In this document: piece by piece, positions 2,444 to 56,125 of the stretch
How positions within the stretch are numbered: the stretch's first letter is position 1
Layout: the number at the start of each line of letters is the position of its first letter
From: Antedon mediterranea
Lineage: Eukaryota > Animalia > Echinodermata
DNA: 64,000 nucleotides
Assembly (NCBI RefSeq): GCF_964355755.1
Contig: NC_092678.1
Coordinates: forward strand, 2,744,422 to 2,808,421
Direction of reading: 5' to 3'
The notes under the pieces: generated by a model
What the model was told of the DNA's origin: nothing
The model's input: the letters and a program-made list of their open reading frames with translations, nothing else
Database searches by the model: none
Position numbers and translations under genes: made by a program

Positions 2444-4858
2444 TTATCTGAAGGTGACAACGATAACCGACTTCCAATGTGGCTGCATTTCAACTCATCC
2501 AGCAACACTTTGCAAGGAGTGCCATCAGAGGAAGATATCGGTGTGCATTATATATCAATAACAGCTATTGGAAAAAACTCTCAGGACCAAGATACCTTCA
2601 CAATAGACGTCGTTCCTTCACCAGATGCATCTGCATCAGAATCTAAAGGCATTGGTACTGGTGCTGTGAAATGTCAAGCAGATGAACCTGCTGTTTTAGC
2701 AGGAATCGTTCTTGATGCAGAATTATCAAAGATGAGCCCTGCAGCACGTGTTGGCGCCATTCAGAAGATGTCTCAATATTCCATGTTGGCAGAAGATACA
2801 TTTACATTGTTACCGTCAAAGACTGGAGACTCATCAGCGATTATTGCTGGCCCAGGAAATATTAGAAAGCCATTTTATAAAGGAATGGTTGTCAGTTGGC
2901 AGATTGGATGTGGTTCACGAGATTTTTCAAAGCTGCCGTTAGTTACCGTGCTGGAGTCTGCAGCCAAAGATGGCTCAATGGCAGAAAAACTTGGACATAA
3001 TATCATCGGTTGGCATGTAAGATACGATCAACCAGAACATGCTAGAAGAATGCGAAGACAAGCCGAACCTACCAGACCACCTTCAGCTAATACACCATTG
3101 GCTACACCAGTCCCTAATTCAATCCTTCCAACGGTTAAGCCAACTAGCGTTAAAACTGATATTCCACCAACACGTGCTGTTCCAGCAGAAAGCACTATGA
3201 TGGTTATGCCTTCTTCAGTAAGGGCGTCGCCATCTCCATCTATGAAACCTACAATGAAGACACAGTTACCGGTGTCTGGGTTCACAGCCATGCCTACACC
3301 AACTCCTACACCACCAAGAGATGTAGTAACTGAGCTGCAGCCAACACCGATGCCAACCTCCGCTCAAGCTCCTACTAGAACATTCACACCTCCCGTACAG
3401 AGTATGACACCTACTGATGTATTGCCATCTGTTCCAGTTATGACAACTGAACCATCACCTTCTCAAGCTCCAATGGCCACATCATCTATGATCCAACCAA
3501 CTAGTTCTGCAACTGTACCAACAACACAAGTCATTATCCTACCTCCATCTTCACCGCCCCCACCACCAACCAAAAAGCCTACTCCTACCAAGAAACCTCC
3601 TCCAAGGAAACCTACTGCTCAACCACCATCAACCAAGAAGATGGAACAGACAACCACAGAACCCACACCTACAACGAATGCAGCTCCAGTTTTGAATCAA
3701 GATGTTGTGTTTTCCAGACTTGAGGTCAAACAAGGTGAATTCCTTGACTTTAAAATACCAGAGGATCTTTTCTATGATAAGGAAGATGGTGATAATTTAC
3801 ATCTTCAGTTATCCTTTCATACAACTGGTAAACCAGTAACGAAGGCCAACTGGTTCCATTTGGATAAAAAGAATAACAAATTGACTGGTCGAACATTAAC
3901 AGCACAAGATGTTACAGAATACATTTTAAGAGCTCAAGACACGAAAGGCTATTTTGAACAATTCTCTTTTGAAGTGGTTGTGATACCTGCACCAAAACCA
4001 GAGACCGCACCAGTATCTATGGGTTTGACTCTTGACATCGATTTTGATGAATTCATGAAGAACAAGGAGCTGCAGGAGTATGTTCTGAGCAGGCTTGCTG
4101 CCGTTTTTGGCGACAGTGACTCAAGTAACATTGCCATCCTTTCTGTTGAAAGAGGTTCTGTTAAGTTAACTTGGACAAACAGTTCTATTTCTCCAGACTC
4201 TTGTCAGATTGAGCTTATCGAGGCTTTAATGAAAATGATTATGAACGAAGATGGAACACCAACAGATGCGCTGCGAGATGCTTTCAAACCAAAATTTGAA
4301 ATCACTGAAGTAGCAGCAATGCCTTCTGGTGCCTGTGTATCCACAATGGCACCGATGACAACTACCATCACTACTACAAGAATATCTGGTGTTGCACAAC
4401 CTCAAACAGACGATATCTGGATAAGTACGGTACTTCCTGCAGTAGTGGTGGCATTAATTCTGTTGATCGCTGGAATAATAATCTTTATTCTTTATCGGAA
4501 AAACCGCAAAGGCAAACTGTCGGATGAAGATAAACACACATTTATAAGCAAACGAATTCCAATTATTTTACCGAATGAAGTCCAAGAAGCAGAGAAACCA
4601 CCCTCGTCAACGACACCACTTATACTAAAGGAGGAGAAACCACCTCTACCTCCGCCCGATTATTCCGACAAGAAAACTGAACCATTACTTAATGAATATA
4701 GCGAACTAGATAGGAATTCAGTACCTATGGTTGATTTATCTGGCTCACCACCTTATGAACCCCCGCCGCCATTAAATTCAACCCCTTCAGAGAACCGAAC
4801 CACAAGACCTATCAATACCCCAACACACAGGGCACCACCACCATATGTTCCCCCCTAA
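2444..4858 (+). CDS. DAG1: Dystroglycan, large terminal coding exon (5' exons lie left of the window)
   Basis: Acceptor ttttgcag at 2443. The ORF has cadherin-like (LPMWLHFN) and S6-like N-terminal domains, a furin site RRMRR, a P/T-rich mucin region, a second CADG domain, an SEA module with the autoproteolysis site RG/SV, a TM helix, the juxtamembrane RKNRKGK and a C-terminal PPPYVPP. A long AT-rich 3' UTR follows, with AATAAA candidates at about 7833 and 7950. Confidence 0.96.
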   Translation, partial: LSEGDNDNRLPMWLHFNSSSNTLQGVPSEEDIGVHYISITAIGKNSQDQDTFTIDVVPSPDASASESKGIGTGAVKCQADEPAVLAGIVLDAELSKMSPAARVGAIQKMSQYSMLAEDTFTLLPSKTGDSSAIIAGPGNIRKPFYKGMVVSWQIGCGSRDFSKLPLVTVLESAAKDGSMAEKLGHNIIGWHVRYDQPEHARRMRRQAEPTRPPSANTPLATPVPNSILPTVKPTSVKTDIPPTRAVPAESTMMVMPSSVRASPSPSMKPTMKTQLPVSGFTAMPTPTPTPPRDVVTELQPTPMPTSAQAPTRTFTPPVQSMTPTDVLPSVPVMTTEPSPSQAPMATSSMIQPTSSATVPTTQVIILPPSSPPPPPTKKPTPTKKPPPRKPTAQPPSTKKMEQTTTEPTPTTNAAPVLNQDVVFSRLEVKQGEFLDFKIPEDLFYDKEDGDNLHLQLSFHTTGKPVTKANWFHLDKKNNKLTGRTLTAQDVTEYILRAQDTKGYFEQFSFEVVVIPAPKPETAPVSMGLTLDIDFDEFMKNKELQEYVLSRLAAVFGDSDSSNIAILSVERGSVKLTWTNSSISPDSCQIELIEALMKMIMNEDGTPTDALRDAFKPKFEITEVAAMPSGACVSTMAPMTTTITTTRISGVAQPQTDDIWISTVLPAVVVALILLIAGIIIFILYRKNRKGKLSDEDKHTFISKRIPIILPNEVQEAEKPPSSTTPLILKEEKPPLPPPDYSDKKTEPLLNEYSELDRNSVPMVDLSGSPPYEPPPPLNSTPSENRTTRPINTPTHRAPPPYVPP

Positions 4859-7800: not shown

Positions 7801-8344
7801 GTAGCAAAGATATTAAACCTTGTTTGTATTTAAATAAAAATATTATAAAGTAGTTATTTTGTATGAAGCATCAAATTGGTTATTGGTAGTTTGTTTGGTG
7901 TATCAATTTGTTGTTGTACTACCTGGGATGGTTGGTAGTATTTTAAACAAATAAAATGTATCAGTTTAAAAAAACTGTAGTTTTCATTTTATAGTATTTG
8001 AAGTTCTTTTGTAAAAAAAATTTTCAGGGTTTTCTTTGGGTTTTTGTTGTGCCAAGGATACCCAGCATTGCAAATATAAATGTTCACCGTTTCACCAACA
8101 ATGTAGAAGTCATGAACTAGATCAATAGCATTTCCATTTGGTACAGAAATTAAGATTCACAATCTATAGGATAAGAAAGACAAATCTAAAAATCCTCAGA
8201 TGTAGAATACCAGGCCAGACTTTAAACTGAAATACTTATTGTACTAATTAATCGTCATTAATAAATAGAATGTTTGTACCGTTGTAAAACCTTATATTTT
8301 TAACTATTTTAAACTTAACTATGTAAATTATTTGGGTTTTTTGG

Positions 8345-8551
8345 GGGTTTTTTAGCCAAGGATACCCATAAAGCGAATTCATTATGTTTCTGAAAGATGG
8401 CAATCCATTCACAGGACAAACATATTACACACAAGATGCTCTACATATAACAAGCTTTTGATGCCAGACTGGAGGTGTTTTTGGTCAGCATTTGAACACA
8501 GGTTTCTGGGATTGGTAGGCAAGCATCTTCACCACCAAGTGACAAATCTAC
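8345..8551 (-). mobile_element. Degenerate tRNA-derived SINE, same family as the 48.5 kb copy
   Basis: Shares 'caggacaaacata..acacaagatgctctacata' and 'ggta..caagcatc..accac' with 48490-48693. Confidence 0.65.
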
Positions 8552-8637
8552 AGATTTAAAATAAAAAGAAATGACAATTGGGACAGGGAATAAATACTAA
8601 TATGTTTTTTGAAATTGTCAATTAAAAATTGAGGCAT

Positions 8638-9768
8638 GTACAGAATTGACATATTTGTATGTACATGTTTTGTTTACGACATTTCATTTCAAACAATGAT
8701 GAACTTTTCATAGGCATCACCGTAAAATTAACTATAGAAAAGTTGAATTGACTTTGAACAAAATTCCTCTGGGTGTGATAATTTGTGAACATAACTTGCC
8801 AACCCGCCACTATAAACATTTATCGAAAACAAACAAATTGCAACAGTCCTTTGTGACTGGAAAGAAATTGAGAGAAAGTAACACAATCCAAATGTTGTGG
8901 AATATTTGGAACATGATGTGGTGAACATTGGGTTTAATGTTTCCAAATCCTTTTATGGAACCTTTATATCATTTTGATTTATTTTCAATTATTTCAATTT
9001 GAAAACAAGGACAGTTCATCTCTCTACACTCATAAAGGAGAAGAAATCTACAAAAAGTACATCTCTACCCACAACCATTACATAAATATTAATATTAATT
9101 TTAAGTCCTCGTTTTAATTCTTTTTTGACATTTTAATACTGTACTTTTCCCTTTGAACAAAACTTTGCATGAGATATGACTACTTATTTACCTATTTATG
9201 ACCCATATTCCAGATATTTAAAAAAACTGGGTACCCTAAAAAAAGTATAGGATTACTAAACAGTATATTCCTAGGACTTATATTACCATGTATGCATGTT
9301 AATTAGTGAAATATTAGAATGATCTAATGTTGAAGTGATTACCAAAAAGTTGTTCCCTGGTATATCTAATTATAAATTAAAACCCCGCCCCCTCTCCAGC
9401 CTATCCAACAATCAGCCAACCAGCGACCATGCTGCTAACGTTTACAAAAGTCATCACCATATATGGAGTAGACTGTTCCAAACAATGCAAAAAGGGGACA
9501 GTCAATTTTCTGCCAACTTCTGTACCTAAAAAGACAATAAAATATCATCACAGTATTAATGTTTAAATATTTAAAAAGTATATATAATTAATACAAGTAC
9601 AATTGATATTAACAATAATAATTTTATCAATTTGAAAGTACTTAAAATTACAATATAAGTAACAATAAATGTTTTTTATTTTCTTCTCCCCTCTTTCAAT
9701 TTTCAGATGGTCCAACTCACTTCCGCCCACAACTTGACAGCGTGAAAATGTGCCTCTGAAGCAAAGAT
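8638..9768 (-). ncRNA. Putative spliced structured lncRNA 'B' (exon 1 about 9768-9721, exon 2 from 9526; 3' end not located)
   Basis: Donor GGAA|GTGAGT at 9721/9720 and acceptor TTTTTAG|GTACAG at 9527/9526. No credible ORF. Nested G-U-rich helices pair 9526-9389 with 8638-8867. Promoter blocks are shared with lncRNA A. Confidence 0.55.
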
Positions 9769-9849
9769 CGTATAGCGCCACGTAGTGGCGCAAGATATGG
9801 AACTGACGCTCGAAAAATGATAATTCCATGGGCAGCCATTCCGGCAAGC
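9760..9849 (-). promoter_or_regulatory. Composite core promoter, copy B
   Basis: On the minus strand: GCTTGCCGGAATGGCTGCCCATGGAATT (9849-9822), GTGGCGCTATA (9781-9771) and ATCTTTGCT (9768-9760). Confidence 0.7.
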
Positions 9850-11769
9850 GGATTACCCAGTAGGCAATGCGGCACGCCACCAAATCAATGTAAACAAATA
9901 GGATTTACATCTACGCGATAAACAGTACGACTTTATTTTATCTTTCGCGTCAAAATGAAAGAACATCTATATAAAATTCGATTATATAAATTTACTCCAT
10001 TTGATATTACACTTACATATGCGTATATCACTGTCCAACCTCAAACGGCTACAGAATAAACACTGACTGTATGGGGGACGAATTTTGTAGGCAGTCGGTT
10101 GAGGCATAGTTATAAATAGTGTCGCGGCGCGCAGCGCGATGCTACGCACTTCACGCCCAAGGTCGGCCGCCTTTGGCCTAGGCTGGGATGATGGCTTAGT
10201 TTATGTGCGAGAGAAGCATTTTTTTGGAGATGAATTGTAATAATTGCCAAATATATTGTCCAAAACTGTCTTTTTAATTAAAAAAAAAAAAATTTATGGG
10301 CAGAGGGATGTTCTTTCCCCTGTTCGGACCCTCTCTTTCTATTTTGTGTGCTTCAGGCCTACAAAGTTATTTCATTGCAAGGGGAATTTTACTACGATCT
10401 GCCACAACTGTAGTATACTGTACATACATTACTAGATACAAAAACAATTGTTACATTTTTTTAATTTCAAAAAAGTAAAAGTATTAAATATTAATTTTAA
10501 AAATTCATAATCATAATTTGTTCTTTTCAACCCACTTTTATTAGCTCAACTTTCAATATTACAGACAGGATTAAAATGCAATAAAAATACTGAAAAATCT
10601 CGCTTTATACAATATTAATAAATAATGGTGGAATAATTAAATACACTCAATAAATAAATTACGAATGTATGGTTTTAGCCTTCTTAAATACAAGGAAAAT
10701 TCTATTATTTTGATTTCTTGTATTAAAAAGAAGCCAATAGGCCTAAACAACAGTACTGATAATAACTGAATTCTGGTTATTTCCTTTCACTTTAAAGTAT
10801 GAGGTGTGTGAAAATAGTGATTTTATTTGTAATCCCATAGGATACTGCTCCTTTTCAAGAATCAAAAATATAAACTATTATTACTATTGGCCTTTGTATT
10901 TAATTCTTGTGTAAAATACCACTTTGCACTCAATCATCTATCTTCTCAATTTTACAGTATGATGACAGACATCTTTCTGAAATAGGGAAAAATATATCAT
11001 TAAATTATTTGGTCACTTTTCGAACTGTTACATAATCATTTGATTACAATATTATAGTATTTTAAAATACTATACATTTTTAAATTCAAAACAAAAGTCA
11101 ATAGCCTACTATTTATTAATATTGTAAGTATTCAAAAATGTTTACATTAATTAACTAAATATTTTTCAAATAAAGATGAAGAACAAAATAAATATGAGGA
11201 TCAAATTTATAATTTAAATTTATTAAATAAAAAAAAAACAAACAATAACATCCTCACGATTTTTTATTTCATTACATTTAATTATTTCTGTTAATGTTAT
11301 TATTAATAAAACGCTATATTGTCTTGTACATTTTTATTAAAAACTCCTAATTCCCGAACAGCTTCAGTTTTTTTCTTAATCTTCCATCCATCCAAGCCTT
11401 GTTTGATCCATCTATCAAGACGCCAATCAATATCATTCATCCTCCCATACTTTTTTTTATTAATCATCATACTAACTAAACTAGGCCTAGGCCTAGTATT
11501 CGGCATTAAATATGCCTACTAGGCATACTACTATCTAGGCCCTAGGCCTAGATCGGATTGCGCAGAAACGCCTGCCTGAACTAAATTTAAACAACAATTT
11601 AATAATTTTGTTAATGTTTACTAACAAAAAAATATATATTCTAAAAACTTACCACTACAATTTACCCAATACAACACGAGAAAACTTCCCGAACAAACAA
11701 TAACACGTCACACGTGGATGTGGTTCAATGGTTTATTATACACTTCCGGGGTATGTGATCGCGTAACTT

Positions 11770-11859
11770 GCTTGCCGGAATGGCTGCCCATGGAATTTCA
11801 CTCATGCGCAGTGTATAAGAGATAGGAGTTCCACGAAGTGGCGCTATAGTATCTTTGCT
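11770..11859 (+). promoter_or_regulatory. Composite core promoter, copy A
   Basis: The same three blocks at 11770-11797, 11838-11848 and 11851-11859, with the same offsets (+68, +81) as copy B. Confidence 0.7.
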
Positions 11860-12683
11860 CTGAAGTCTCCGATTATCGTCTGCTCATGCTGTGTGTACGT
11901 CGAAACTTTCGAAGTATTGTATGTGTGTCTTCTGAAATCGAACAATTTTGATGATATTACTTATGTAAGCTGGTTATTATGTTTATGATATCTATAAATG
12001 ATGTATAAGGGTTAATTATCTTAATTGTATAATCCTTTTACAGGAGTTTAGTGTAGTTTAGAGACCATTTTTTGCTAGGCTAGGATAGAGCCTAGGCTAG
12101 TTTAGCCTTGCCCTAGCTAGCTAGAGCTCGGCCCAGCCAGTCGCAAGACCTACCAAGGCTGGTGGAGGTTGTTCGCCTGCAATACTATGCTCACATTTTG
12201 ACGTTCTACTACTGTATTACTTTTTTATTGACTATTATGGCCTAGGCTATATTGCATTAATACAGGAACTTTTTCTTGTGTATAGGCTACAGCGATTTTC
12301 TTGGCTAGGCCAAAGAAAAGTCATGGTTGGTTTGGAACACGCTGCACTGGCTGGTGTGGTGGTGCGTTTGGACATGATGGGAAATGCAGTAGCAGTAGGC
12401 CTAGGCGCGCCTATGAATGATCAGAAACCTGAAAATGGGTAAGTCTTAGTTGTCTAATGGATTAAAGCAGGGTAAAAATTGGGTGACAGATGAAATTGTT
12501 CATGTTTTATTTTGTTCACGATAAAATCAAAATTCGGTATTTTATAAATTATATGGAGCTATCAGGTAAGTTTGATATTGGTCACGTTATTTGTATTGGC
12601 CGCCCTGTAGATACATTTTTGGTTCGGTATTGTTAAGTTTGCAGCTGTTAAACCATATGTTCATAATGTCTATAATTGTATTA

Positions 12684-13226
12684 CAGTAGAACCTGTGTTT
12701 TACGTACCCTGATTTTACGTTCCCTTGATTTTACGTACGCTTAAAATAACCGATGACGTCATCATTTTCTTACATTGAGGGTGCAATTTAACAACAACAA
12801 AGCACACAAAGCCACAATCATGGCTGTGTGTGGAATTCTGCTGTGTGTTTGAGTCAAGCTACGCACGTGCCATGGCACGTGCATTTAAGCAGCGACTGTT
12901 TTTATTGATAGAAAATACAAGAACATTGATATTTTACACTTTATTTAAACATCTCACAGCCTGTATATACTGTACAGTACTGTACTTTTCTAGTTAGGCC
13001 TCACATCTTGCTAGGCCTGCTAGCCTGGCCTGAATAGTCTAGGCAAGGCCTAGCTAGTGACAACCTGCATGCTGTTCAATACAATAAAGTAGACAAACCG
13101 GGTAGCCTTTATAGCTACGATCTCTACGTATTTGGGGTCAATATAAGGTCAACCTTGATTTTACGAATCCTTTGTTTTACGTACGCCTTTCGGTCCCGTA
13201 CCGTACGTAAAATGGAGGTTCTACTG
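12684..13226. mobile_element. Tc1/mariner (pogo/Tigger-like) MITE
   Basis: TIRs CAGTAGAACCT...AGGTTCTACTG flanked by TA, with subterminal repeats of 'gttttacgtac/gattttacg' at both ends. Confidence 0.85.
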
Positions 13227-13968
13227 TATATTAATTATTTGTTCATTTATTTTCAGACAGTCTTTCTTAGTGGTCTAACAAGAAGAAGATGGTGGTAAAT
13301 TCAGTATGATCCTGCCAAGCTGGCTTAACACAAACCTAGATTGACTGCAAATTGATGATACCACCAGCGGTGAGTTTAAAGCTATATTTTTTTTTGTCAT
13401 GTATATAACTGCATATGCAGTTAGTTTTTAAAAAAACCGAAGAATATATTGATATTGAGGGCGAGGAGGGTAATTTATCATTATCTATAGAGAAATGTGA
13501 ATAGTAGTTGGAAGATAAGAAGATGTTCAATTAAGACTAGAAGACTATTTCTACTACTAGTACTAGATGCTACTCAAGTTTCTTCTGCTGAAAATACAGG
13601 TATATAAAATAGTCAACTTGTTTATGATTATAAATAAACATGCGCATTCATTAAAGACCAGTTATAAACGTGAATTTCAGATATGAAATTTCGTTAAATA
13701 TACAAAAATAATTGTTGTCAGACTTAAATGTGGTCAAATATGGAATTTGGCCAAATTAAAAAAACCAGTCGGCCATTATAACAATAACTGTTGTCTTTCA
13801 ATAAAGTGATAACATTAACATTTTGTTTTCTTTTTTTAGCTTACGCAAGATTGGAGATGGGCAGCTTTATCTATTTATGTATTTATTTTTTTAAGCCGTC
13901 ATAAATTATAAATATAATTAATAAATAGTTAAAATAAATAGCATAAATTACCATTGTAATTAGCAAAT

Positions 13969-15277
13969 CCTCACTAGCAATGAACAAAGTAAGTGCAATT
14001 TTAAAATAATTATAAGTGCAAAAATATAAAGCATAAATGTTTTTTTTTGTTAATTGAAAAGCAACATTTTGTTTTCAAATTCTTAAAAAAACTAACTTTC
14101 TATTAATTTCATAGGGGTTTACTTGTCTCAGAATGTCAAGTGTAAATAAGCCCTGATACCATGGTTTTCATGGTATTCAAATTTACATTTATGTATTTCA
14201 ATTAATAATTAGTATAATTTAATGATTTGTTTTTGCTGGTGAGGTTCTTTTCTGTGTAAGGTGTATTAGCAAATCCTCATAAGCAATGAACAAAATAAGT
14301 GTACACCTTTTCGTTTACTTGAAAAACAAAATTTATTTTCAAATTTCATTTAAAAAAAATCAAATTTTACATAAATTTCATAGAGGTTTACTTGTCTCGG
14401 AATGTCAAGTGTAATCCCTGATGCCATGATTGTTTTTATTTTACATTTTTCTTTTCTTTCCGTTTTACATGGTATTAAAATTTAAAATGTTATACTTTAT
14501 AGCAAACAGTTGCATACAAATTTAATTTATTTAAATGTAAACATTTGTTTTTGCTAATGAGGTTCTTTTTTATTTTTCTCTTGGGTGCAATTGTAATTCA
14601 GAACCCCTCATTAGCAATGAATTTTGTCAATTGTCCTCCCAGATACCATTTATGTTTTATACATTTTTGTTTTTAAATGGTGTCGTAAAAATAAATGTAT
14701 TTCAAAGAAGCATATATTGTGTCTGCACAGTATGTATCAAAATTGTAAGTAAATTATGTTTGTTGGTATAAAGTTTGCGGTACACCACGTGTACTATTAG
14801 TTCTGAGTTGAGTTTCTCGACGCGAGGACGATGAAAGTATATTGATCGAAACGTCGAGAAACTCAACAGTTCTTTTCAGAACTAATACACGTGGTGTACC
14901 GCAAACTTTATATCAACATTTGATTTCGCCATGCAAACCTTAAAAAAATATAAATTATGTTTGCTAATGGGGTTCTGTTTGCTCTTGCCCTGGTCCTTCT
15001 GGTGCAATGTTTAGAGTTCAAATTGTGTACACTCATTAGCAATGAACAAAATAACTGTAATTTTATATTAATTTTTGGCTATTTAAAAAAATAATCCTGC
15101 AATAAAAGGCCATTTATATAATTTCAAATTTAATGTACCTACCCCTCAGGATGTATTCCCTTCTGTGGGTGTCAAGGAAATTGATACTATTTTCTATATT
15201 TTGTTCTGTTGTACATGGTATCGAAAGAAATTATTTAAAATTTAATACAAAATTGAAATTTGGTTTTGCTGATGAGT
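13969..15277 (+). repeat. Four tandem structured units of about 165-290 nt, each closed by a 12-bp stem
   Basis: Stems: 13969-13980/14233-14244, 14275-14286/14551-14562, 14606-14617/14961-14972 and 15031-15042/15266-15277. Each unit has an internal gat(a/g)c(c/t)at...atggt(a/g)t stem. Confidence 0.75.
14763..14950. mobile_element. Palindromic Penelope-like retroelement remnant with a degenerate hammerhead core
   Basis: About 55-bp inverted arms surround gacgatgaaagtatattgatcgaaacgtc. A 13-bp direct repeat TAAATTATGTTTG at 14750-14762 and 14951-14963 looks like a TSD. Confidence 0.6.
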
Positions 15278-15597
15278 TTTTTTTTTCTTTGTACAACTTT
15301 ACAAGTACTGTACTTGCGTGAATAAGCTGCCGTTTAAGAGAGTGCATACTTTGGAGATTCATGTTTAGTAAAAACATTCTATTTGTAAGCATTCTCTTTG
15401 AATTGCTCCTTTAGTACAAAAACATGTTTTTACTGCTTTTTGCCTATGGTTTTCCTACATCTCACAAAAATTTACTAATAATCTTAACATTATGAGTTCT
15501 TTTCGATAACATATATTCCTAAAAGTTGTCTACAAAATTGACGCAAGCACTATAAATTCTGCGTAATGATAGCAAGTACGGTAACTTGCATTATAAA

Positions 15598-15842
15598 AGG
15601 TGGGGGACATGGTTTAAAAAAGGTGGGGGGGGGGGGACATGGTTTAAAAAAAGGTGGGGGGGGGGGACATGGTTTAAAAAAGGTGGGGGGGGGGAGGGTT
15701 TAAAAAAGGTGGGGGGGGGGCATGGTTTAAAAAAGGTGGGGGGGGGGCATGGTTTAAAAAAGGTGGGGGGGCATGGTTTAAAAAAGGTGGGGGGGCATGG
15801 TTTAAAAAAGGTGGGGGGGCATGGTTTAAAAAAGGTGGGGGG
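15598..15842. repeat. G-run minisatellite, unit about (G)6-11CATGGTTTAAAAAAGGT, about 9 copies
   Basis: Directly visible tandem repeat with variable G-tract length, G-quadruplex prone. Confidence 0.9.
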
Positions 15843-17481
15843 ATCTATTTTAATTATGTAGGTATAAAATTGTTTTTAGCTGTGTTTGTTGATCACTTGG
15901 AATTGAAAAGAACCAATGGAAGGGTACCACACATTTTGATGATGTTAAATGGAGAGTTGCTGCATTATTTACAGATGGTTAAATGGTATGTCGCCAATAT
16001 TCAATCTTCATTTTGATTATAATTCATTGAATGTACAACTAGAATCGAACATTATTCTGCACAGTAAAGGAAAATGATGATGTTACCCTAAATAGTATCT
16101 GTAAAAACTAATATATTACAATCAATCAAGGTAGACAAGCCTAACCACTCCTGTTTGATACTCTGCTTGATTGAATTCATGATAACGGTTGAGACAGGGT
16201 AGCATAAAATGGACGCAAGAAATGCTTTTAAAACAACTGAACATTATTGAATAATTATTATGATTACTATTTATTATTGTATCTTTTTAGGTATGCACCA
16301 ATTGAAGACGACTTTCTATGAGAGACTTGGATCAGCCAGCAATTTCAAGATCAACAAACATTTACATATATAATTTCCATTGTAGAATTGTTCAGTGAAG
16401 TGGAATGAATCTTAATGTTCTTTAAATTTAATGAACAAAATTGACTAAATTGTAATTTTTGAAAATTATATATGAAAAACTTTTTCCAAATATTTACTAT
16501 TTCTTTATATTTTGTATCATTTTTCAAATATGAATAGCCTAAATTTTGTTTTGGCAATTGAACTTTTTGGATTTGTTTTGGTTTTTTAAACTTGAGTAGT
16601 TTTTTTTGTAATCACACTTAAAATTACAAATTTCAAACATAATTTTACATGATTTCGGTTGAATATTCTTATAATTCTATAAAATTGAATTCCACTTCAC
16701 TGTGTATATATTATATATTTATAGTTTATAAATGTAATTAGTTTCAGGTTTTTCGAACTCTAAACATTGTTACAAAAAAAGCACCCCTCTGCACACCCCC
16801 TGTGTGCTCCAACCACACCGATGGGTACCGGCCAGCTCGGCTGCACGGTGAATGCTTCTCGGGTCGTGTTCTTTGCTCCTGCTAATTGGTGAGTTTGTTT
16901 TGAGATTTTCTATGGAGGTTTTTGATACTTGTTTCATGTTCTATGTAATCTACATTTTGACCAAATGCTTGTGAGAGTCCTTTACAGTCCTTTGTGGTGT
17001 TGGCATTGTGGCGGTGGCACCATCATCAGTGTATGGGTTTGAAACTAGACAAATCAGGAGTTAAATAACCTAATAAACTGGTTTCAGTATGTTTTATGGT
17101 TCTGTTTTACAATTAAAATTTAATAACTCAAAAGACATTGCATGCATGTACAAACAAAAAATATTTTGGAACTTTGGTGGTTAGACAAACTCTGTGTGAT
17201 ACATTCCTCTTTGATCTGGCTAAGTAAGCAGGCAGGAAGTTATACAATACTATTCTCAAAGTGTGCTTGATATATTTATCTCAAAGATATGGTACCAATT
17301 TAATTTAATACAATCATATAATTTAGCTATAATCCTGTCTTTAAATTTAAAGTTGATAATTCACATTTTCACACATTACACACAATATAATTTATATTTT
17401 ACACTTTTTATATTTGCAACAAAAATATTAATATAAATTAGAAGTAAAAGTGTTTTTATACTGTTAGTATAATGTAAGAAT

Positions 17482-18388
17482 TGCCTGTAAGGGGCACTTT
17501 AAAACTTAGCTGCCTGTAAGGGGAAATTTAAAACTTAGCTGCGCGCCTGTAAGGGGCACTTTAAAACTTAGCTGCCTGTAAGGGGAAATTTAAAACTTAG
17601 CTGCCTGTAAGGGGAAATTTAAACCTTAGCTGCGCGCCTGTAAGGGGCACTTTAAAACTTAGCTGCCTGTAAAGGGAAATTTAAAACTTAGCTGCCTGTA
17701 AGGGGAAATTTAAAACTTAGCTGCCTGTAAGTGGAAATTTAAAACTTAGCTGCCTGTAAGTGGAAATTTAAATTTTAGCAACCTGTAAGGGGAAATTTAA
17801 AACTTAGCTGCTTGTAAGAGGAAACTTAAAACTTGGCTGCCTGTAAGGGGGAAATTTAAAACTTAGTTGACTGTAAGGGGAAATTTAAAACTTAGCTGCT
17901 TGTAAGAGGAAACTTAAAACTTGGCTGCCTGTAAGGGGGAAATTTAAAACTTAGTTGACTGTAAGGGGAAATTTAAAACTTGGCTGCCTGTAAGGGGAAA
18001 TCTAAACTTAGCTGCCTGTAAGGGGAAACTTAAAACTTAGCTGCCTGTAAGGGGAAATCTAAAACTTAGCTGCCTGTAAGGGGAAATCTAAAACTTAGGT
18101 GTCTGTAAAGGGAAATTTAAAACTTAGCTGCCTGTAAGGGGGACATTTAAAACTTAGTTGACTGTAAGGAGAAATCTAAAACTTAGCTGCCTGTAAGGGG
18201 AAATCTAAAACTTAGGTGTCTGTAAAGGGAAATTTAAAACTTAGCTGCCTGTAAGGGGGACATTTAAAACTTAGTTGACTGTAAGGAGAAATTTAAAACG
18301 TAGCTGCCTGTAAGGGAAATTTAAAACTTGGGTGCCTGTAAAGGGAAATTTATAACTTAGGTGATTGTAGGGGGAAATTTAAAACTTT
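17482..18388 (+). repeat. Tandem array 1, about 31 copies of a 29-30 bp unit (AAAACTTAGCTGCCTGTAAGGGGAAATTT)
   Basis: Directly visible. Copy number estimated from length divided by period. Confidence 0.95.
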
Positions 18389-18878
18389 GCTTTAATTTAT
18401 GAAGTAGATTTGCTGACCATTTACAGTACTCTAATTTTTTGTTGCAAATATAATAAAAACAATTTTATAAATACATAAATTAAACTCTGCATAAATGCAT
18501 AATTTATTTTGGTTCGCACAAATTCAAGGAGAAGTCTCATTGAGTATTTTGTAAAGCATCATTCATCATTCAAATGTATTTTCCACCAAAACAAACAACA
18601 ATGATAAATTACTGTAGCTAGGAATAGTTGTTTTAAAAAGCATTGATTGATTTAATTAACATTCAAAAATAAATTAAATGCACTCTTTTAGTGTCCTTAT
18701 AATTTGAATGAAGTTTCAAGTAGGATAAACCAGTTGATACAGTATGCAATAGGCAGACTAATAATATAAACTTTATTTGGGTGATGTAAATTATTTACAG
18801 CATTGACAATTTAATGCTTTGAATAGTTAAATTTAATAAATAAATTTAGGTGTATTTTTTATGTTTACGTCAGTTCAA

Positions 18879-19648
18879 TTTAAAACTTAGCTGCCCGTAA
18901 GGGGCTTTTAAAACTTAGCTGCCCGTAAGGGGCTATTAAAACTTAGCTGCCCGTAAGGGGCTATTAAAACTTGGCTGCCTGTAAGGGGCTATAAAAACTT
19001 AGCTGCCCGTAAGTGGCTATTAAAACTTGGCTGCCCGTAAGGGGCTTTTAAAACTAGGCTGCCCGTAAGGGGCTTTTAAAACGTAGCTGCCCGTAAGTGG
19101 CTATAAAAACTTAGCTGCTCGTAAGTGGCTATTAAAACATAGCTACCCGTAAGGTGCAATTAAAACTTAGCTGCCCGTATTAAGGGGCTATTAAAACTTA
19201 GCTGTCCGTAAGGTGCTATTAAAACTTAGCTGCCCGTAAGGGGCTATTAAAACTTAGCTGCCCTTAAGGTGCTATTAAAACTTAATTGCCTGTTGGTGAC
19301 TTTTAAAACTTAGCTGCCCGTAAGGGGCTGTTCAAACTTAGGTGCCCGTAAGTGGCTATTCAAACTTGGTGCCCGTAAGGGGCTATTCAAACTTTGTTGC
19401 CAATAAGTGGCTTTTATAACTTTGCTGCCAGTAAGGGGCTATTCAAACTTGGGTGCCCATAATGGGCTATTCAAACTTAGGTGCCCGTAAGGGGCTATTC
19501 AAACTTGGGTGCCCGTAAAGGGCTATTCAAACTTAGGTGCCCGTAAGGGGCTATTCAAACTTTGCTGCCAGTAAGGGGCTATTCATACTTTGCTACCAGT
19601 AAGTGGCTATTCAAACTTTGCTGCCAGTAAGGGGCTTTTAAAACTTAG
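18879..19648 (+). repeat. Tandem array 2, about 27 copies of a 28 bp unit (AAAACTTAGCTGCCCGTAAGGGGCTATT)
   Basis: Directly visible. Same orientation and core as array 1, with a different 3' end of the unit. Confidence 0.95.
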
Positions 19649-20803
19649 TCACCAATGAGTGGTGAATTTATACTTAATAATATAATTTAATTAATATAAT
19701 TTAATTAGTATAATTGAATTACATTAAATTGAAATTGTAGCTTAATAGTTTGTTTTGGTTGAGTTTATACATACAGTGGTCTACACACAGTGAACACAAC
19801 ATGCACACAGTTGGTTACTACAAACATTAATAATAATAAAAAAATAAACAAACTTACACTAAAATAAATAATGGCTTCTCTTAAGATAGGAATAGTTGGT
19901 ACCGTATCTGAAGGGTAAATGAGTTGGGCAGTATAACAATTACACTGTGCTGTCCTGAAAACGAAGTCGTTGGGTTTGGTATTACCAGAGAGTCAACCTT
20001 ATTAAATTATATAATCCAAATTATGTACTGCACAATTTGTTTTCTTGAGCTAATTATAGGCATCAAAATTATTGACATCTAATTTTCGGAGACCAGTTTG
20101 GCTTTATTTTCCACAACAAGATTGGTTGCGTTTGTGTCGTGCGAAGCTATGACAAGCTTTGTTCAACATAAATGCGTCTAATTTGATGTTTTGGGAATTT
20201 AGTCTTAGAACCTTTTACCTTTTTTTTACTGTAAATATTAATATAAAATAACCTTTTGGCTAATGATATAGTCGAATGGATATCAAAACTACACAAATAT
20301 CAAATTCTATTAAAAATCATTTGTTTTTAATATATTATTTTATTAATAATGTTTGTTAAATACAGTATTAGTTCAATATCTAAATTTTAATATAAATATA
20401 TATTCAACTATTAATTCCTATGCTCACATATGCATATAATTCCACTCCTGAGAACGTCCGGTGTGCCCAGGGCGATTCCCTCATGTGTCAGCGTCCCTGC
20501 ATTGGAGTATTGGGTTCTCACTTGTGTTAAATGGTTTTTCTGTAGTTTACATTGAACTTTAATCGTTTTCGATTGAAGCTAGTGTCTTTGACTTTCTAGA
20601 TGTCTTGGAGCATTCTTGCAGCTTGGTGGTTGTGGCGGACATGACTTGGGGACATATTCAATGTGTAGTTGTGTGGGTTAACACTCATTGGTGTAGTGGG
20701 GCACATAGGGGGTGTTGCAGAGGGGTGCTTTTTTTTTGGCTCGAAAAATAAACACCACACACAATGTACATTTGTTTGTCTTTTATTAAAGTGGCTGACC
20801 ACC

Positions 20804-21137
20804 AACCGCCAGAGGGCGCCCTTTAAACTACTAGCCACAATGTAGAGGGCGCCCTCATCCAATAAAAAAAATCGGCGTAGGAGTCCCTACAGAGCCAATT
20901 TCCAACCAGATGAGGGCGCCTTTCACACAAACAACACTATAGAGGGCGCACTCCCATTAAAAAACGCCCTCACAAACGAAAAAAAAAATTGGCGTAGGAG
21001 TCCCTTACGAGACCTTTTTCCATCAGATGAGGGCACCCTTTTTGCCAATCACAATATAGAGGGCGCACTTTTTATAGAACGCCCTCATTTAATACAAACG
21101 ATAGTGCCACTTTTTTTTACGCCAAATGAGGGCGCTT
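20804..21137 (+). promoter_or_regulatory. Cluster of CTCF-like (A/T)GAGGGC(G/A)C motifs, partly within a roughly 120-bp duplication
   Basis: CCGCCAGAGGGCGCC at about 20806 fits the CTCF core, and six further partial copies follow. Confidence 0.5.
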
Positions 21138-21624
21138 TCCAGTGGCAGAAAAAGTAATCATTCATTCTACATACCTGTTACTGTTAGCCTTCTTTCTAGC
21201 TGCCAGTACAGCAACTTTTTTTCTTACCTTTACAAATATGCCTACCACTCTACCGCAATTAATAACAATATGCCTACCACTAAATAATAATTATATGCCT
21301 AAACTAAATCGTGTGAATATCTTAAAAGTATATTATCATATGCCAACCAGATTAAACAGTTTTAATAGATTAGAAAATAATAAAATGTGAAATCAGACGA
21401 TAAACAAGTATACATGCCTACATGACTAAAATACAGCATAGAAGATGTGAAATCAGATGATAACATGAAGTATATATATGCCTACCAGACTAAAATATGT
21501 GCAATCATAATGAACAGTTTATAAAAATAAATGCAAACAATTGATGCAATGCTGAAATTCATATGCCTATGACTAAAGATATAATATGCCAATACTAAAA
21601 CTTGAATAAAGTTAAAAAATAGAC

Positions 21625-24435
21625 ACAACACAGGGATTAACTTTATTGAGGTTAGGGCTAATTACAAAGACAATGGCAATCAGATGGAGCAGCTGGATCG
21701 CGGATGATTATGTTGGAAATAGTAGATATAGTTGAAATTCTCTGTACTATAGTACAGCGATTTCCAAAAAAATGGACAAAAGGGCTGTTATATGTGTCAG
21801 TCAAATGAAACTATATTTTGGTGCAGCTGGTGAAAATATATGGTCATGAAAATGTAGCTTTCCACACAAAGAATACTTCATTAAAATCAAGTTTCCAATT
21901 CTGTTTCACCTGAAAGATAACAAAATATAATAAATATTTAATTTTTAGGATTTGTTTTTCTGCTCCTTTTGTTTTGTACACACCTTATTTGAGTTCAGTG
22001 CCAGTAATAGAGTATTTGATATAAATGCTTGAGTGCATCACCAGATGTGTTATGCAAATTTTATGTAAATTAGAACTTTGCATGCTTGAGCAATGTAAGT
22101 TCATTTGGCATGTGTAGCTTGTTGTGCAAGGACACAGCATGGAAGGCTAGTACAATGGTTTATAGGAGCTGACTTAAGCCTGTACTGAAAGGCTTACTAA
22201 GCCTGGAGCTGACACAAGCCTGTACTGAGAGGCAATTACTAAAGTCTAGAACTGACACAAGCCTGCTCAGACTGAGAGAGTTATTAAGCCTGGAGCTGAC
22301 TCAAGCCTAGGCTTTACCTAGAAGCTTGTCTGCGGTTGACTGTAGCAATGAGGGACAGTCAGAAGGAGGTGAGTTAAAATAGAAATGTAATATAAGAGTT
22401 TACCATATAACAATTTTGTGTCTGTATATTTATGATTGCTTTTTATTAATATTGAATTAAAATGATATGTCATTAAATTTCTTTCTTTATAGAGATATAG
22501 AGATTTTTAAATAAATTTTGGTTATAATAAAGAGGGTGGGTGCTTTGTTTATTTAAAGTTAGGCTGGGCGGAATCTACACCCCAGTAGGATTACATAAAT
22601 CAAGCACATGCTATGCTAACATGTTATTTGAAAATTTTATGCAATTTCTTAGTTAAAAATAATGATTGATTCCGAAAGACTGCTCATCACACAAGGGTAA
22701 TTTGCGTCAACTACACCGGACGCTATAGAATCCGTTGTGTTTTTACTTTTTTTAAACTTTAGTTAGGCTGGGTTCAAAATTTGGTGTCCAACTGCAAGTC
22801 ATTTTGTATTTTAAACTAAAAACCATCGAACCTTACATTACCTTTCGTGTTTAGCTACAACAGCTGATCTGTGTTATCATCTAATCTTTATCTGGTTAGA
22901 AGAGTTCCTGAAAAATATTTTGAAAAAAATTATTTTAAAAGTGATCAAAAATATTCAGTAATTCATAACAAATAAACATGTTAAAAAAAAAAGGAATGCA
23001 CTATATTGAAATTAACTGAACAGACTCATAGATGCTTTATTGAGTTATTCAAAATTAGAGGGAGCTGTATACATTAGGACCAATTTGGACGTTGCGCACT
23101 TAAAGTCATAATTAATTGATAATTAGTAGTTTTTTAATTAATGTAGAATAACATTTTTATTTGATATGCCATTTAAGTGTAGCCATGCATAACAAATTGT
23201 AGGCAATGTTTTATAATATTCAACATACCATCATTTTTTTTTCTTTATAAACTGTGATTCAAAAACATACTTCTAGGTAAAAAAGTGATGTTGAGTGTCG
23301 ATGTAGTTCCTGCAAGATTTAAGAAAAATAGTATATTAAGTGATGATATATCTGGTACAATTATTTGCATATTCAAGGTTTCAGTTCAGGATGGAGCTAT
23401 AATTATTATATTACCCACAGCATTGTCATTTTTTCAGTAATTTTCCTTTGGATTTATATATCTTTATCGTTTAAAATTAATTAATTAAATTTCAGTATAT
23501 CACCGGGCAGTTTAGAATTAATGTACTTTGCCTAATGTGTCGATATATATATTTATTTCTGGCTGTTTTACTTATCGTTTTGATTTAACTTTTCGCTTTT
23601 TTTTTTGTATCTCCATTGAGATCCAGCCACTGATACCCACAGCATTGTCATTTTTTCAGTAATTTGCCTTTGGATTAATATATATTTAGCCTTATTATTT
23701 ATTTTTTATTCAGTAGATTTCGTATTGAATACATAATTATTTATGCCCACTACACCAGTACTTATACTATTTTAATCATAAAGCAAACAATTTTATAAAA
23801 TAATACACTTAACTTAAAACTTACTCATAAAATGTCAAAATTATGACTTCTCAGATGTGTCTTCTTAGTACTTTGTCATACCTGAAAATAAAAGATGATA
23901 GTTAAAATCTAGAATGCAAAATTTAAAAATGAATATGGTATGATTAAATTGGCACTTTCGGCCTTTCCCCATTCATATTAAATAAAATTTATTATTTTAA
24001 AAAATAAAATAATTTTTATACAAACTATACTCAGTACCCTCATTTGAAAATAATATTCTATGAATTGTGACAGGTGTGAAGATATTCAAATGTGTAGGGA
24101 TACCCATTGTGTAGGCCTATTAATAATGGAACCATTAACGCGAATGGTGTAGCCAAGCAACAGGGCCTAAGTACGTACTTCGCACTGCACTGGCTGGTGG
24201 TGGTGTGCATCCATCGAACGTGGAAGAGGCCCTAGCGAAGCACCACTTTTATATTAATTAAACTGACGTCTACTGATGTTATAATAATCTTGCATGACTT
24301 TTAAAGATGTACATATTTATATTATATATTTTTTGCCTTCTGTCAAATCAGTAGGCTTATTATACTTACTTTTATTATCGTTTTTTGATGGTGGAAAAGT
24401 CAAGCAGCAGAGGGTCCGCAGCAGAGAAAAAAAGA
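21625..24435 (-). ncRNA. Putative spliced non-coding transcript 'C' with an oligopyrimidine start (exons about 24435-24370, 23881-23826, 21909 to about 21625)
   Basis: Minus-strand CTTTTTTTCTCT start, AAAA|GTAAGT donor, TTTTCAG and CTTTCAG acceptors, TGA|GTAAGT donor and AATAAA at about 21647. No ORF. Confidence 0.45.
22167..22310. repeat. Degenerate tandem repeat of about 40 bp (GGAGCTGACACAAGCCTGTACTGA...), about 3.5 copies
   Basis: Directly visible. Confidence 0.75.
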
Positions 24436-25149
24436 AATCAGCGCAGACAATTGAAAATCCCGTGATCTGATTGGTCAATAGTCAGCTAGGGACTTCTGAC
24501 TCACTCTCTGAAACCCGTCCGATTTGTTTTCAGAGTTGCGCAATCGCAGTATGTATTAAAATATTATTTTTGTTTTTGTTTAAAAGAAAGGTTATTTTGG
24601 TTATAAATAAGTTATCATACTCTTTTTATCTAAAATAAAACGCATAAAATCTTCCAAAAGTTAATTTTTGTCGGAACTTGGTTGACAAAATATTCACGTT
24701 GGTGGCGCTCGTTTTTGTTTATATTGTGACTATTGACGCGTGAACTAGTTTGGTCTTTAAAAAAACACATTTTCCCACATCAATTACTGTATTAGCATAA
24801 GAAATCTGTTTGTTTAGTATGTAGTAACTGATGCCTGTTTGGATATATAGTATGTACAGATAGTGAGAAACAAATTAGATTACAATTTTAACATTTGTAT
24901 ACAGTAGTTTTTATTATAGAGGGCAGGCTAGCTAGCTAGGCCTACTACTTTAGTCTACTGTCTAGTCTCTAGAGAGTATGTAGAGGTCCTACCTGTCCTG
25001 TAACCTAGCTAGCTAGCCTTAACAGAGTCTATCCAGCATACTACTAGCTAGCCTGTAAAAGCACACATTTACACAGTCGACCATGCAGCTAGAAAACTTG
25101 TCTTTTTAGATGTATGCTGATATAATGATAAAATAATATAATTAATCAT

Positions 25150-25770: not shown

Positions 25771-28233
25771 ATGAAAGTTAATATTCCAAAATATATGCAG
25801 CTTTTCCGATGTTTATCAAATCTTCGAAAAATGAGCAAATCTTTGACTTATGATGCTGAACAGATCTTTGAGGTATCAGTCAATTCTGTCCTCCCGCACC
25901 AGATGGTCAAACGGTCACTACTTGTGGATGGCAACAGACTAGTAGTGGATGGATGTAGTTACAGTATCAACCACAATGTTCATATGGTTGGTTTTGGCAA
26001 GGCTGTTATTGGGATGGCAGCTGCTGTTGAAGAGATTCTTGAAGAACATCTGGTTCAGGGTGTTGTCAGTGTGCCGTTTGGTATCCAGGAATCTTTCAGG
26101 GCTTCTGGTCGGAGGTAAACTATTGTCTATATAAATTAATCCTTAATCTTAATAAATTATAAGTTATTACTTTGTACATTATTTTGGATAAACATTTTAA
26201 ATGAATTGATTTGAATTTAATACAATACTATGTTTATTTAAGTAACAGTTTATTGGGATATCATGATTTAAATTACTTTCTTTTATTTCTTTAGTGACCT
26301 ATTATTAAAATTGGAAAGTAAGGTCAAAGTAGTAGAGGGAGCTGCAGATAACCTTCCTGATGAACCTGCAATGAATGCTGCAAAGGAAATCGCGTCAGTG
26401 GCAGAAAATGTTGGAGAAGATGATATTCTGATTGTTTTGATATCAGGTATGTTGAATTATCCAATTCGATATTCTTTAATAGCATACTGTGAATTGTTTC
26501 TACAAAAAAAAAAACATATTTCAGAAAGAAAAGCATTTAGTGCATAAATCATAAAAAAAAATGTTTTAATCTTTTGGTAGCCAGTATATATCTTTGTTAC
26601 TTTTTGACAATTTTTCTTTCAATATGCATCTCACTAAAATGAATCTTTATTAGTGAATGTTAAGAATGAAGGGATTGTAAACTGATTGTTTCTGTTGCAA
26701 CACCCTGATCGCTTGCTTCAAATAAATAAGTGGGAAAAAGCTAAAGTCATTTGGCCAGTTTTCCTTAAAAAATCATCTTTACTATTAAACACAATTATTT
26801 TTGAAAATTTAAATTAAATAGGAGGTGGTTCTGCTTTGCTTCCGTTGCCTGTGGATCCTGTAACACTAAATGATAAGCTGCAAGCTACCAAAATTCTAGC
26901 AAGGAGCGGTGCTACAATACAAGAACTAAATACAGTCAGAAAGAAACTGTCAAAGTTGAAAGGTGGTGGCCTGGCCAGACTTGCAAAACCTGCCAAGGTA
27001 AAGAAATCAAGTTTGGTTTGGGGTACAACTTTATGCAATTTCTATAAATTGATAAACGATGAGCCAATATGTGGTGTGAAGGCAATTGACACAGTCTATT
27101 GACAATGCAGCAAATTCATCATTTCCTATCATCAATGCATTGTTTTCCAGTTGTTTCTTGGCAACATGGACAACTTTATTTTAGACACAGAGTCAACCAT
27201 GTCAATAAAAAACAGACATGGTTGACCATACTGACAGTCTATTCCATACTTTCTACCTCAACTAACCTAAATAAATGTTTTTAAATTTGTTTAGGTAATC
27301 TCCTTTATTTTATCTGATATCATTAACGACCAACTGGACATGATAGCTAGCGGACCAACTGTTGCAGATGCATCAAATACAAATGATGCACTTGCCATCA
27401 TCTCAAAGTTTGGTGAAGAGACTTCAATGCCATCATCAGTCATGGATACGTTAAAAGAGGCTGCTACAAAACATCAAACCAACAGAATAGAGACAAATTT
27501 CTCTCATGTTCAGAATGTTATTGTTGGCAGTAACAAGATAGCATTGCAAAGAGGTTGTGAGAAGGCTCAAGAGCTAGGCTATTATCCACTGATAATGTCT
27601 TCAGGAATTCATGGGGAAGCAAAAGATTTAGCAGATGCTTACTGTAATCTCTCCATGTTGATTGGACTCTTAATGCAGTATAGAAAATCGGTATTGTCAT
27701 ACAAAGGCATTGAGTTGAAACTGTTGGATAGCATAAACATATTGTCTAAATTTGGTGTCTCTAAATCTTTTGGTGGTCATCTTCTTGAATATATTCCATC
27801 TGCAGATAAACCTCTTTGTTTACTAGTGGGAGGAGAACCCACTGTGACATTAAAAGGAAACGGTAAAGGTGGTAGGAACCAGGAGTTAGCTCTTGCTGCA
27901 GCTGTTCATTGGCAAACAAAATCGGTGGAAGACTTAGCCTGCAGCAATACGTTGACAGCAGGGGATAGAGTGAAGACCGGCTGCCAAATGGTGTTGTTGA
28001 GTGCTGGAACTGATGGACAAGATGGGCCTACAGATGCTGCTGGGGCTATAGCTTATCCGTCCCTGTGTAATGAAGCTAGAAACCTACACCCTCAAGAATT
28101 TCTTGATAATAATGATTCATACTCTTTTTATTCTACATTTAACGATGGAATGTATTTGATAAAAACTGGATTAACTGGTACCAATGTTATGGATATACAT
28201 ATTATGCTTTTCAGTCCAAATACTTCACAATAA
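25771..28233 (+). CDS. GLYCTK: Glycerate kinase (MOFRL/DUF4147 class), exons 25771-26114, 26295-26446, 26822-26997, 27295-28233
   Basis: Motifs GFGKA, LISGGGSAL, KGGGLA, GGEPTV...[20 protein letters not shown] and TGTNVMD. The GT-AG junctions keep frame. The start ATG is uncertain. Confidence 0.95.
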
Positions 28234-55452: not shown

Positions 55453-56125
55453 TCTGGTATTTAAAGTTTGCCAGAATGTCTAGATTAAAGTATTTTTAAC
55501 TTAAATAAATAAATCTTATACTAAAGACTTACTATAGCATAAGAATATAATTTTGAAACGTCATATACTGACTGTACATTCAAGTGATAAAGTGGAAATA
55601 ATAAAAATAAATATATGTTTAGAATAAATAAATGATGTTACCAAATGTGTTAAATAAAATGGGTAAAATGGAAAGGGAATCTGGAAACACACCATTGGAA
55701 GAACGGGAAAAACAAAAGTATACCCTTTTGTCAGCTCAAGTATATTCATTTTTGTACAATTTGTAGGTAAATAAAAGTAACTATAATACTATTCCAAGGT
55801 GGAACATAGTACGATATACTATATGATGTTAACAAACATTTATACGTTATAGAAATTATGTTTTTTAGATAATAATAAAATAGCCTACCTACCTAGGCTA
55901 GCTAGGCCTCTACTATAGCTAGAGAGAGTGTGTAGGTAGGCTAGTCTATGCACCTGTCACCTGTGTAGTTAGGCTACAGGCAGTGCCTACAGAGCACAAT
56001 GACAGTGTGTGACTGGACTTATTATCTTGTTTGACTTATGACAATAGGCGGATCACATGCGTTTATATTGCTCATTTATTTTTAACTAAACTTTATCACT
56101 TCCCTTATTTTCAGACGTCTTGAAG

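Follow-up and report, generated by a model that had tools for sequence, protein, structure and literature searches.

The stretch of DNA analysed here (the window) comprises 64,000 nucleotides of the Antedon mediterranea genome (NCBI RefSeq assembly GCF_964355755.1, contig NC_092678.1, positions 2,744,422 to 2,808,421, forward strand); all coordinates below are positions within it. A gap of about 20 kb between DAG1 (2417-4858) and an exon of GLYCTK (27295-28233), which matches a protein assigned to Antedon mediterranea at 100% identity, houses a domain of some 4 kb whose two ends pair with each other, when read as plus-strand RNA, to form a giant stem. This strand-specific stem is real; it is probably selected and belongs to a small crinoid gene family. 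Within 16291-20770 the longest ATG-initiated open reading frame (ORF) has 42 codons, and no Pfam family was found at the curated cutoff in ORFs near or inside the domain. The stem is built from four segments:

16741-17066, plus strand: left outer arm, near-perfect over 40 bp, then an A-poor core rich in G-U and U-U (folds, alignment)
17075-17341, plus strand: left inner arm, whose partner is 19883-20099, with a weaker strand bias
19883-20099, plus strand: right inner arm (duplex energies, fold)
20439-20753, plus strand: right outer arm, A-poor and rich in G-U and U-U (folds, alignment)

Minimum free energy (MFE) structures of RNA were computed for each strand, and z scores were obtained from 60 dinucleotide shuffles. 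The plus-strand MFE structure of 16700-20800 contains 390 pairs spanning more than 2.4 kb, from 16702/20771 to 17341/19883 (170 A-U, 145 G-C and 75 G-U), against 102 such pairs on the minus strand, with total energies of -1120 and -856 kcal/mol respectively. The outer duplex (16740-16940/20560-20760) reaches -202.5 kcal/mol on the plus strand (z -19.5) and -113.7 on the minus strand (z -9.1); the corresponding z scores are -5.5 and -3.2 for the middle duplex (16940-17050/20440-20560) and -9.4 and -5.3 for the inner duplex (17040-17345/19870-20110). No pairing signal was found between the left inner arm and the bulge at 20110-20440 (z -0.4). The arms lie where a preliminary description of this DNA, made from the letters of the sequence, had placed them, and its proposed 16-bp helix with 6 G-U pairs at 16856-16871 was recovered by alignment with 20637-20652. 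The folding of both strands that it had called for shows the plus strand to be far more stable, with the minus strand also beating its shuffles. Along the rod, about 40 near-perfect basal pairs are followed by a wobble-dense core of about 200 bp and then by a looser inner rod. The A content of the core arms is 0.16-0.18, against 0.33 window-wide.

As RNA folding favours G-U pairs by design, the arms were also aligned as DNA with a flat mismatch cost, in four segments picked after the fold had been inspected. In the outer core and middle (about 250 bp, 242 positions), 157 positions are Watson-Crick and 85 are mismatches when read as plus-strand RNA. Among these mismatches, G-U outnumbers A-C by 44 to 4 (p 1.5e-9) and U-U outnumbers A-A by 23 to 0 (p 2.4e-7), the others being 6 C-U, 6 G-A and 2 remaining. 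The bias is weaker in the first inner segment (10 G-U, 7 A-C, 12 U-U and 6 A-A), and the second holds 9 G-U, 1 A-C, 1 U-U and 3 A-A. The excess of G-U over A-C on which the preliminary description had relied is thus present in the outer core and middle and is less marked in the inner arm. Such a G-U asymmetry in conserved stems is described as an accepted indicator of reading direction (PMC1892782).

The same asymmetry could in principle arise without selection, if an old inverted repeat or foldback-like remnant had decayed neutrally under a transcription-linked mutation bias towards G+T on the plus strand. Loss of A alone can yield both G-U and U-U, the domain belongs to a multi-copy block with internal tandem repeats, both strands still beat their shuffles, and the letters specific to the window copy include C.A and G.A mismatches. 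Five control inverted repeats in the window, some of which have copies in common, lean the same way (20 G-U to 13 A-C; 7 U-U to 1 A-A). The stem's G-U ratio of 44:4 nevertheless differs from theirs (Fisher p 0.0016), and decay would call for a mutation bias whose lower 95% bound is 4-fold, of which arrays and spacers show none: the distinct array variants inside the domain split almost evenly between A>G or C>T (13) and T>C or G>A (12), and G+T, at 0.65 in both core arms, is 0.46-0.53 in the arrays and spacers. With control repeats that are near-symmetric and internal arrays that lack a transition bias, decay biased to one strand accounts poorly for the asymmetry. It is further opposed by the lack of a target-site duplication of at least 7 nt at the ends, by a copy number of about three where true interspersed repeats nearby are 100-1000x deeper, and by the neighbours of the G-U pairs, which carry neither an ADAR-like nor a CpG signature; we regard it as unlikely. 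Two specific sources of the wobbles were rejected on the latter count. For a retrotransposed, ADAR-hyperedited origin, the 5' neighbour of G is G in 20 of 74 G-U pairs and in 37 of 133 G-C pairs; for CpG decay, G follows U in 23 of 74 cases, compared with 49 of 175.

Out of 1912 pairs of 500-nt tiles in the window, the stem has the highest plus-strand pairing score (186, against 92.5 on the minus strand), and its strand gap is the largest by far, the next four tile pairs being near-equal on both strands. The gap between plus and minus energies amounts to 107 kcal/mol with RNA parameters and to 18 with DNA parameters. Selection on plus-strand RNA pairing is, in our judgement, likely. The preliminary description's step from asymmetry to selection holds up against the control repeats, the arrays and spacers, and the comparison of RNA with DNA energies; it is tempered by the controls leaning the same way and by the weakness of the inner arm. 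It is highly improbable that pairing was selected in the single-stranded DNA of a mobile element and not in RNA. G-T is tolerated in DNA, and DNA energies, too, somewhat favour the plus strand (-94.9 against -76.6). Judged by the order of mismatch stability, the mismatches fit RNA better, G-A being no commoner than C-U (6 against 6) and U-U being strongly favoured, and none of the ORFs scanned with Pfam matched a transposase or recombinase family.

Nine sequencing runs from two organisms cover the stretch, none of them recorded as RNA. The data over 11700-22600 come from four of them (X1, X5, X6 and X9), as assembled contigs alone, and the contig evidence consists of 40 listed differences of 652, 15 listed joints of 170 and 31 listed records. 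The contigs point to about three loci in both organisms across roughly 16.7-22.2 kb, contig depth being a rough guide to copy number. In X1, both letters occur at 16828 and 16851 (65/117), a collapsed contig has a depth of 142.5 at 16949 against 41-46 in single-locus contigs, and the arm bins stand at about 3-7x single-locus depth, where nearby interspersed repeats reach 100-1000x. X6 holds three differing contigs over 16688-16916, with 21-29 differences each. One X9 contig (organism B) differs at 2 positions over 16858-17052, where the same run differs at 20 over 20149-20489 (single contigs). Two coverage patterns were set aside: the missing coverage of X9 over 20800-21891, where X6 continues, was not used as evidence of ends (single run, contigs), and the greater depth of X5 and X9 over the domain than upstream was not used as evidence of expression (contigs, one run per study).

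Of the 40 listed variants, 15 lie in the arms, and for 10 the partner position in the long stem is defined. Eight of these 10 pair (0.36 expected per site, p 0.005), as 4 repairs of mismatches, 2 changes from G-U to G-C and 2 from A-U to G-U.

Foldback transposons are recognised by inverted repeats, target-site duplications and dispersed copies. This identity was rejected for the domain: near-identical terminal repeats are absent (in the outer core and middle, 157 of 242 positions are Watson-Crick), a clear target-site duplication is lacking (four matches of 5-6 nt, all within the basal helices), and the depth in X1 given above does not indicate many dispersed copies. The high-copy foldback element with target-site duplications that the preliminary description had set against its own proposal was therefore not found, the locus still being present in about three copies and not in one. 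The TU foldback transposons of sea urchins, likewise from an echinoderm, have long inverted arms, a variable middle and tandem repeats; a literature search on them found no paper. The Antedon core arms differ from them in being 65% complementary as DNA, in carrying the repeats in the loop and not in the arms, and in having few copies.

The loop of the stem, the bulge in its right arm and its base contain the following features:

17408-17425, plus strand: 5' strand of a perfect 18-bp helix closing array 1 (fold; strand-neutral)
17482-18391, plus strand: tandem array 1, 31 copies of a 29-mer
18436-18453, plus strand: 3' strand of the 18-bp helix closing array 1 (fold)
18880-19648, plus strand: tandem array 2, 27 copies of a 28-mer related to the array 1 unit, in the same orientation
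20100-20204, plus strand only: side hairpin of 105 nt and about 40 bp, G-U-rich, in the right-arm bulge
20747-20784, plus strand: predicted poly(A) site, with AATAAA at 20747-20752, CA at 20769-20770 and a U/GU-rich stretch at 20771-20784 (sequence)
20750-20787, minus strand: predicted mirror-image poly(A) site, with AATAAA at 20787-20782 and a GU-rich element beyond (sequence)
20806-21135, no strand assigned: cluster of 8 CTCF-like motifs, within the multi-copy block

The two arrays together provide 58 repeat units. The helix closing array 1 is perfect and strand-neutral, so it is uninformative on which strand folds; a stem closing array 2 is predicted as well, but it is AT-rich and nearly equal on both strands. 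Folding gave no support to GUAA-loop hairpins within the array units. The arrays contain 47 GTAAG words, which are weakly donor-like, against about 0.8 per kb elsewhere; a role of U1 snRNP at these words is speculation. On the minus strand, the array 1 units (17482-18391) present an acceptor-like pyrimidine tract followed by CAG|G 24 times, an appearance that probably reflects nothing more than the donor-like word read from the other strand. The side hairpin folds at -41.5 kcal/mol on the plus strand (z -6.2) and at -17.3 on the minus strand (z -1.3), which makes it a second structure specific to the plus strand. A microRNA precursor has a stable hairpin of about 35 bp between single-stranded flanks; the side hairpin has about 40 bp, and its 5' flank is paired within the rod.

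At the base of the stem, the AATAAA noted in the preliminary description is present at 20747-20752, and CA lies 17 nt past it. The plus-strand and minus-strand sets of signals are opposed and centre on one palindrome; given this head-to-head arrangement, the 3' end of a plus-strand RNA would fall just past the stem, and a minus-strand RNA converging on it would stop just outside the stem. The earlier proposal that the mature 3' end sits at the stem base is thus in line with the signals (AATAAA, CA and the GU-rich element), the support coming from sequence alone. Just beyond, 20806-21135 forms strong local hairpins on both strands (plus strand z about -5 to -6) and is present in the paralogous copies, judging by depth. 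All 8 matches in the window to the pattern of its motifs, which we take to be CTCF-like, fall there.

The stem could instead act in cis on the host RNA, as a switch of splicing or 3' end formation that masks a possible acceptor at 16747 and half of the AATAAA, or it could exclude the arrays in a looped-out intron or a circle. The basal helices (16741-16756/20741-20753) do contain a TTTCAG|G acceptor-like site and part of the AATAAA, and seven further AATAAA inside the domain accompany the GTAAG words of the arrays. These helices are just 4 and 9 bp long, a rod of 390 bp would be unnecessary for a switch, and none of the 15 listed joints (of 170) has GT..AG ends; we consider this explanation quite improbable.

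Contigs of X5 break at splice acceptors at two places near the domain. One of them (contig 11) lies on the genome over 16290-16616 and has its first 140 letters elsewhere, where an X1 contig (5) is continuous over 15891-16785; the plus-strand acceptor at this break is 460 nt upstream of the stem. The other (contig 16) departs from the genome at a minus-strand acceptor at 21910-21911, where an X1 contig (7) is continuous over 21624-22075. From these breaks we infer spliced RNAs from both strands, with the following elements:

11770-11930, plus strand: putative promoter and first exon of the host non-coding gene, with a start near 11860 that we take to be TCT-like (sequence reading)
13258-13370, plus strand: putative internal exon with AG...GT bounds (sequence reading)
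16280-16290, plus strand: splice acceptor, the last exon likely starting at 16291 (break in X5 contig 11, AG context)
21624-21909, minus strand: likely spliced exon of a minus-strand non-coding RNA from the GLYCTK side (X5 contig 16)

The minus-strand RNA would comprise 21909 to about 20765 together with 22842-22907; it is likely a spliced non-coding RNA that originates near the GLYCTK promoter, is directed at the stem and ends head-to-head with the plus-strand RNA. Its 66-nt exon (22842-22907) was proposed from the sequence itself.

Our preferred reading, to which we assign a probability of roughly one half, is that the domain is the last exon of a long non-coding RNA (lncRNA) in which a selected, paired but imperfect rod presents the arrays as a predicted multivalent protein scaffold. 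The last 4-4.5 kb of this polyadenylated lncRNA, which exists in about three copies in Antedon, would have its ends zipped into a 390-bp rod. The arms may stem from an ancient inverted duplication, after which changes leading to G-U or to tolerated U-U would have been kept and changes leading to A-C or A-A purged. The resulting A-poor rod might bind double-strand RNA proteins and yet make a poor substrate for Dicer, for ADAR and for sensors of double-stranded RNA (dsRNA), and the low A content of the core arms fits a duplex with few editable sites. Speculatively, the wobbles are as though A-to-I editing had been encoded in the genome, and they would also abolish a perfect inverted repeat in the DNA. 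The rod is predicted to hold out the 58 repeat units as the scaffold. The role ascribed to the wobbles is inferred from other systems. In adenovirus VA-I, encoded wobbles are reported to reduce activation of PKR and OAS1, and they recur in EBER1 and nc886 (PMC6599070); I:U wobbles are proposed to block MDA5 (PMC13501140).

A number of results weigh against this reading. When the AT-rich flanks are included in a loose alignment, the excess of G-U over A-C is diluted to about 1.5-2.4 to 1, and the stem's U-U excess of 23:0 is not distinguishable from that of the control repeats (p 0.26). The outermost 40 bp are almost purely Watson-Crick, which suits a Dicer or ADAR substrate better than evasion, and the arrays fold no better than their shuffles (z +0.4 and +1.6). 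Among the contigs of the four runs, none spans both arms or reveals the strand of the domain. Two of the listed variants break pairs (17048 and 17054, both in one X5 contig and in a weak stretch), 6 of the 8 pair-keeping variants would be equally expected from neutral decay of a perfect repeat, and no two-sided compensatory change is found among the 40 listed of 652 differences. In X5, seven arm sites show the alternative letter at full depth, and the contigs of this run may derive mainly from a paralogue and not from the window copy.

The near-perfect basal 40 bp also keep viable another account, in which the locus is a hairpin-RNA gene whose rod (through Dicer) or side hairpin (through Microprocessor) yields silencing small RNAs, G-U pairs permitting the arms to drift while remaining diceable. 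The outer 19 and 18 bp are near-perfect, copies are few, the side hairpin is of pre-miRNA size, and a joint in X6 skips 16771-16857, so that the outer helix of that copy seems to be different. In its predicted long imperfect fold-back, which would lie within a likely capped, polyadenylated non-coding transcript, and in its membership of a small duplicated family, the locus resembles the hairpin RNAs (hpRNAs) described in Drosophila (PMC10317233, PMC11840564). It differs from them in that its arms lie 2.5 kb apart around two arrays and its core is A-poor with dense U-U loops. The longest pure Watson-Crick run in the rod is 20 bp and U-rich loops of 2-4 nt interrupt the core; more mismatches may mean poorer Dicer-2 cleavage, as the authors of one study speculate from one substrate pair (PMC11840564). 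Moreover, the arms have no homology to another gene within the window, there is no Rfam match, and the arrays would be left unexplained. Overall, we find a hairpin-RNA gene doubtful.

Repeat-rich non-coding scaffolds include Xist, Rsx, roX, hsr-omega and NEAT1, and the Antedon arrays could likewise bind many copies of a protein. There is no sequence relation between these RNAs and the Antedon RNA (Rfam blank), and we know of no repeat-rich scaffold lncRNA with its arrays closed by a giant terminal wobble rod. Among RNAs dominated by a duplex, VA-I, EBER1 and nc886 are transcripts of RNA polymerase III, and rncs-1 of C. elegans is about 0.8 kb in size. Like the predicted Antedon RNA, rncs-1 is an animal non-coding RNA dominated by a long intramolecular duplex, and it was discovered as an ADAR substrate (PMC4408787); the Antedon RNA would be several-fold longer, with genome-encoded wobbles and repeat arrays. 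With VA-I, EBER1 and nc886 it shares encoded G-U pairs along the duplex, for which binding of sensors without activation is proposed, whereas their stems are short, at about 20 bp, against a predicted 390-bp rod in a probably spliced locus (PMC6599070). Wobble pairs make up 75 of its 390 long-range pairs, the richness expected of a VA-I-like decoy. The architecture combines that of a long dsRNA-forming non-coding RNA with that of a repeat-rich scaffold lncRNA and is assigned to neither.

The preliminary description had recognised no known RNA family, and Rfam 15 agrees, with 0 matches at or above the gathering threshold in the 64-kb window; a search of 8000-25000 gave 3 weak matches at chance level (E 1.2-3.2), all outside the domain. 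A pattern of the array unit had 0 matches in metagenome and viral contigs. In the literature (titles and beginnings of abstracts), no paper was found that describes the locus or such an RNA architecture; an lncRNA model for the locus may already be present in the public genome annotation. More tentatively, the Antedon RNA might represent a class of giant, 4-kb, 'pre-edited' structured lncRNAs in a small crinoid family, with hundreds of base pairs tuned through G-U and U-U, with clasped ends, docking double-strand RNA proteins yet undiced, unedited and unsensed, and with the 58 repeat units serving as a scaffold for a condensate or for splicing factors; we hold this broader proposal to be rather unlikely.

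Whether animal lncRNAs contain large selected structures is a long-standing question, and clear cases beyond a few model species are rare. Here one genome, which also supplies the controls, is enough to read a sign of selection, and the few copies found in two related organisms permit a covariation test. If G-U and U-U pairs do allow evasion of Dicer, ADAR and the sensors, they would constitute a natural design rule for long self duplexes.

Several further observations concern the sequence upstream of the stem and the remainder of the window. The putative promoter has an inverted duplicate, 9822-9849 being identical to 11770-11797 in inverted orientation over 28 nt (BLAST), and over more by eye. 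This suggests, as read from the sequence, a divergent pair of sister non-coding genes, each with a TCT-like start; on the left side no further stem was found. The putative intron carries, at 13960-15300, two interleaved families of small repeated hairpins, one ending in a CTGATACCA-like word and the other combining a constant 13-bp base stem and a variable top, frequently with ACA at its end. Their folds are weak (z +0.3 to -2.9) and have no Rfam match; they are possibly small intronic RNAs. An H/ACA identity was rejected, since on our reading the spacing does not fit that of H/ACA RNAs and the folds are weak. A MITE-like element lies at 14761-14918, with 36-nt arms that are 94% complementary and a depth of more than 1000x single copy in X1 and X6. 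A 24-mer with long plus-strand G runs is repeated ten times at 15591-15842, which is 0.9 kb upstream of the stem, and likely forms a G-quadruplex array. Two ORFs of more than 320 codons, without a Pfam family at the cutoff, are found at 56090-57070 and 58487-59452.

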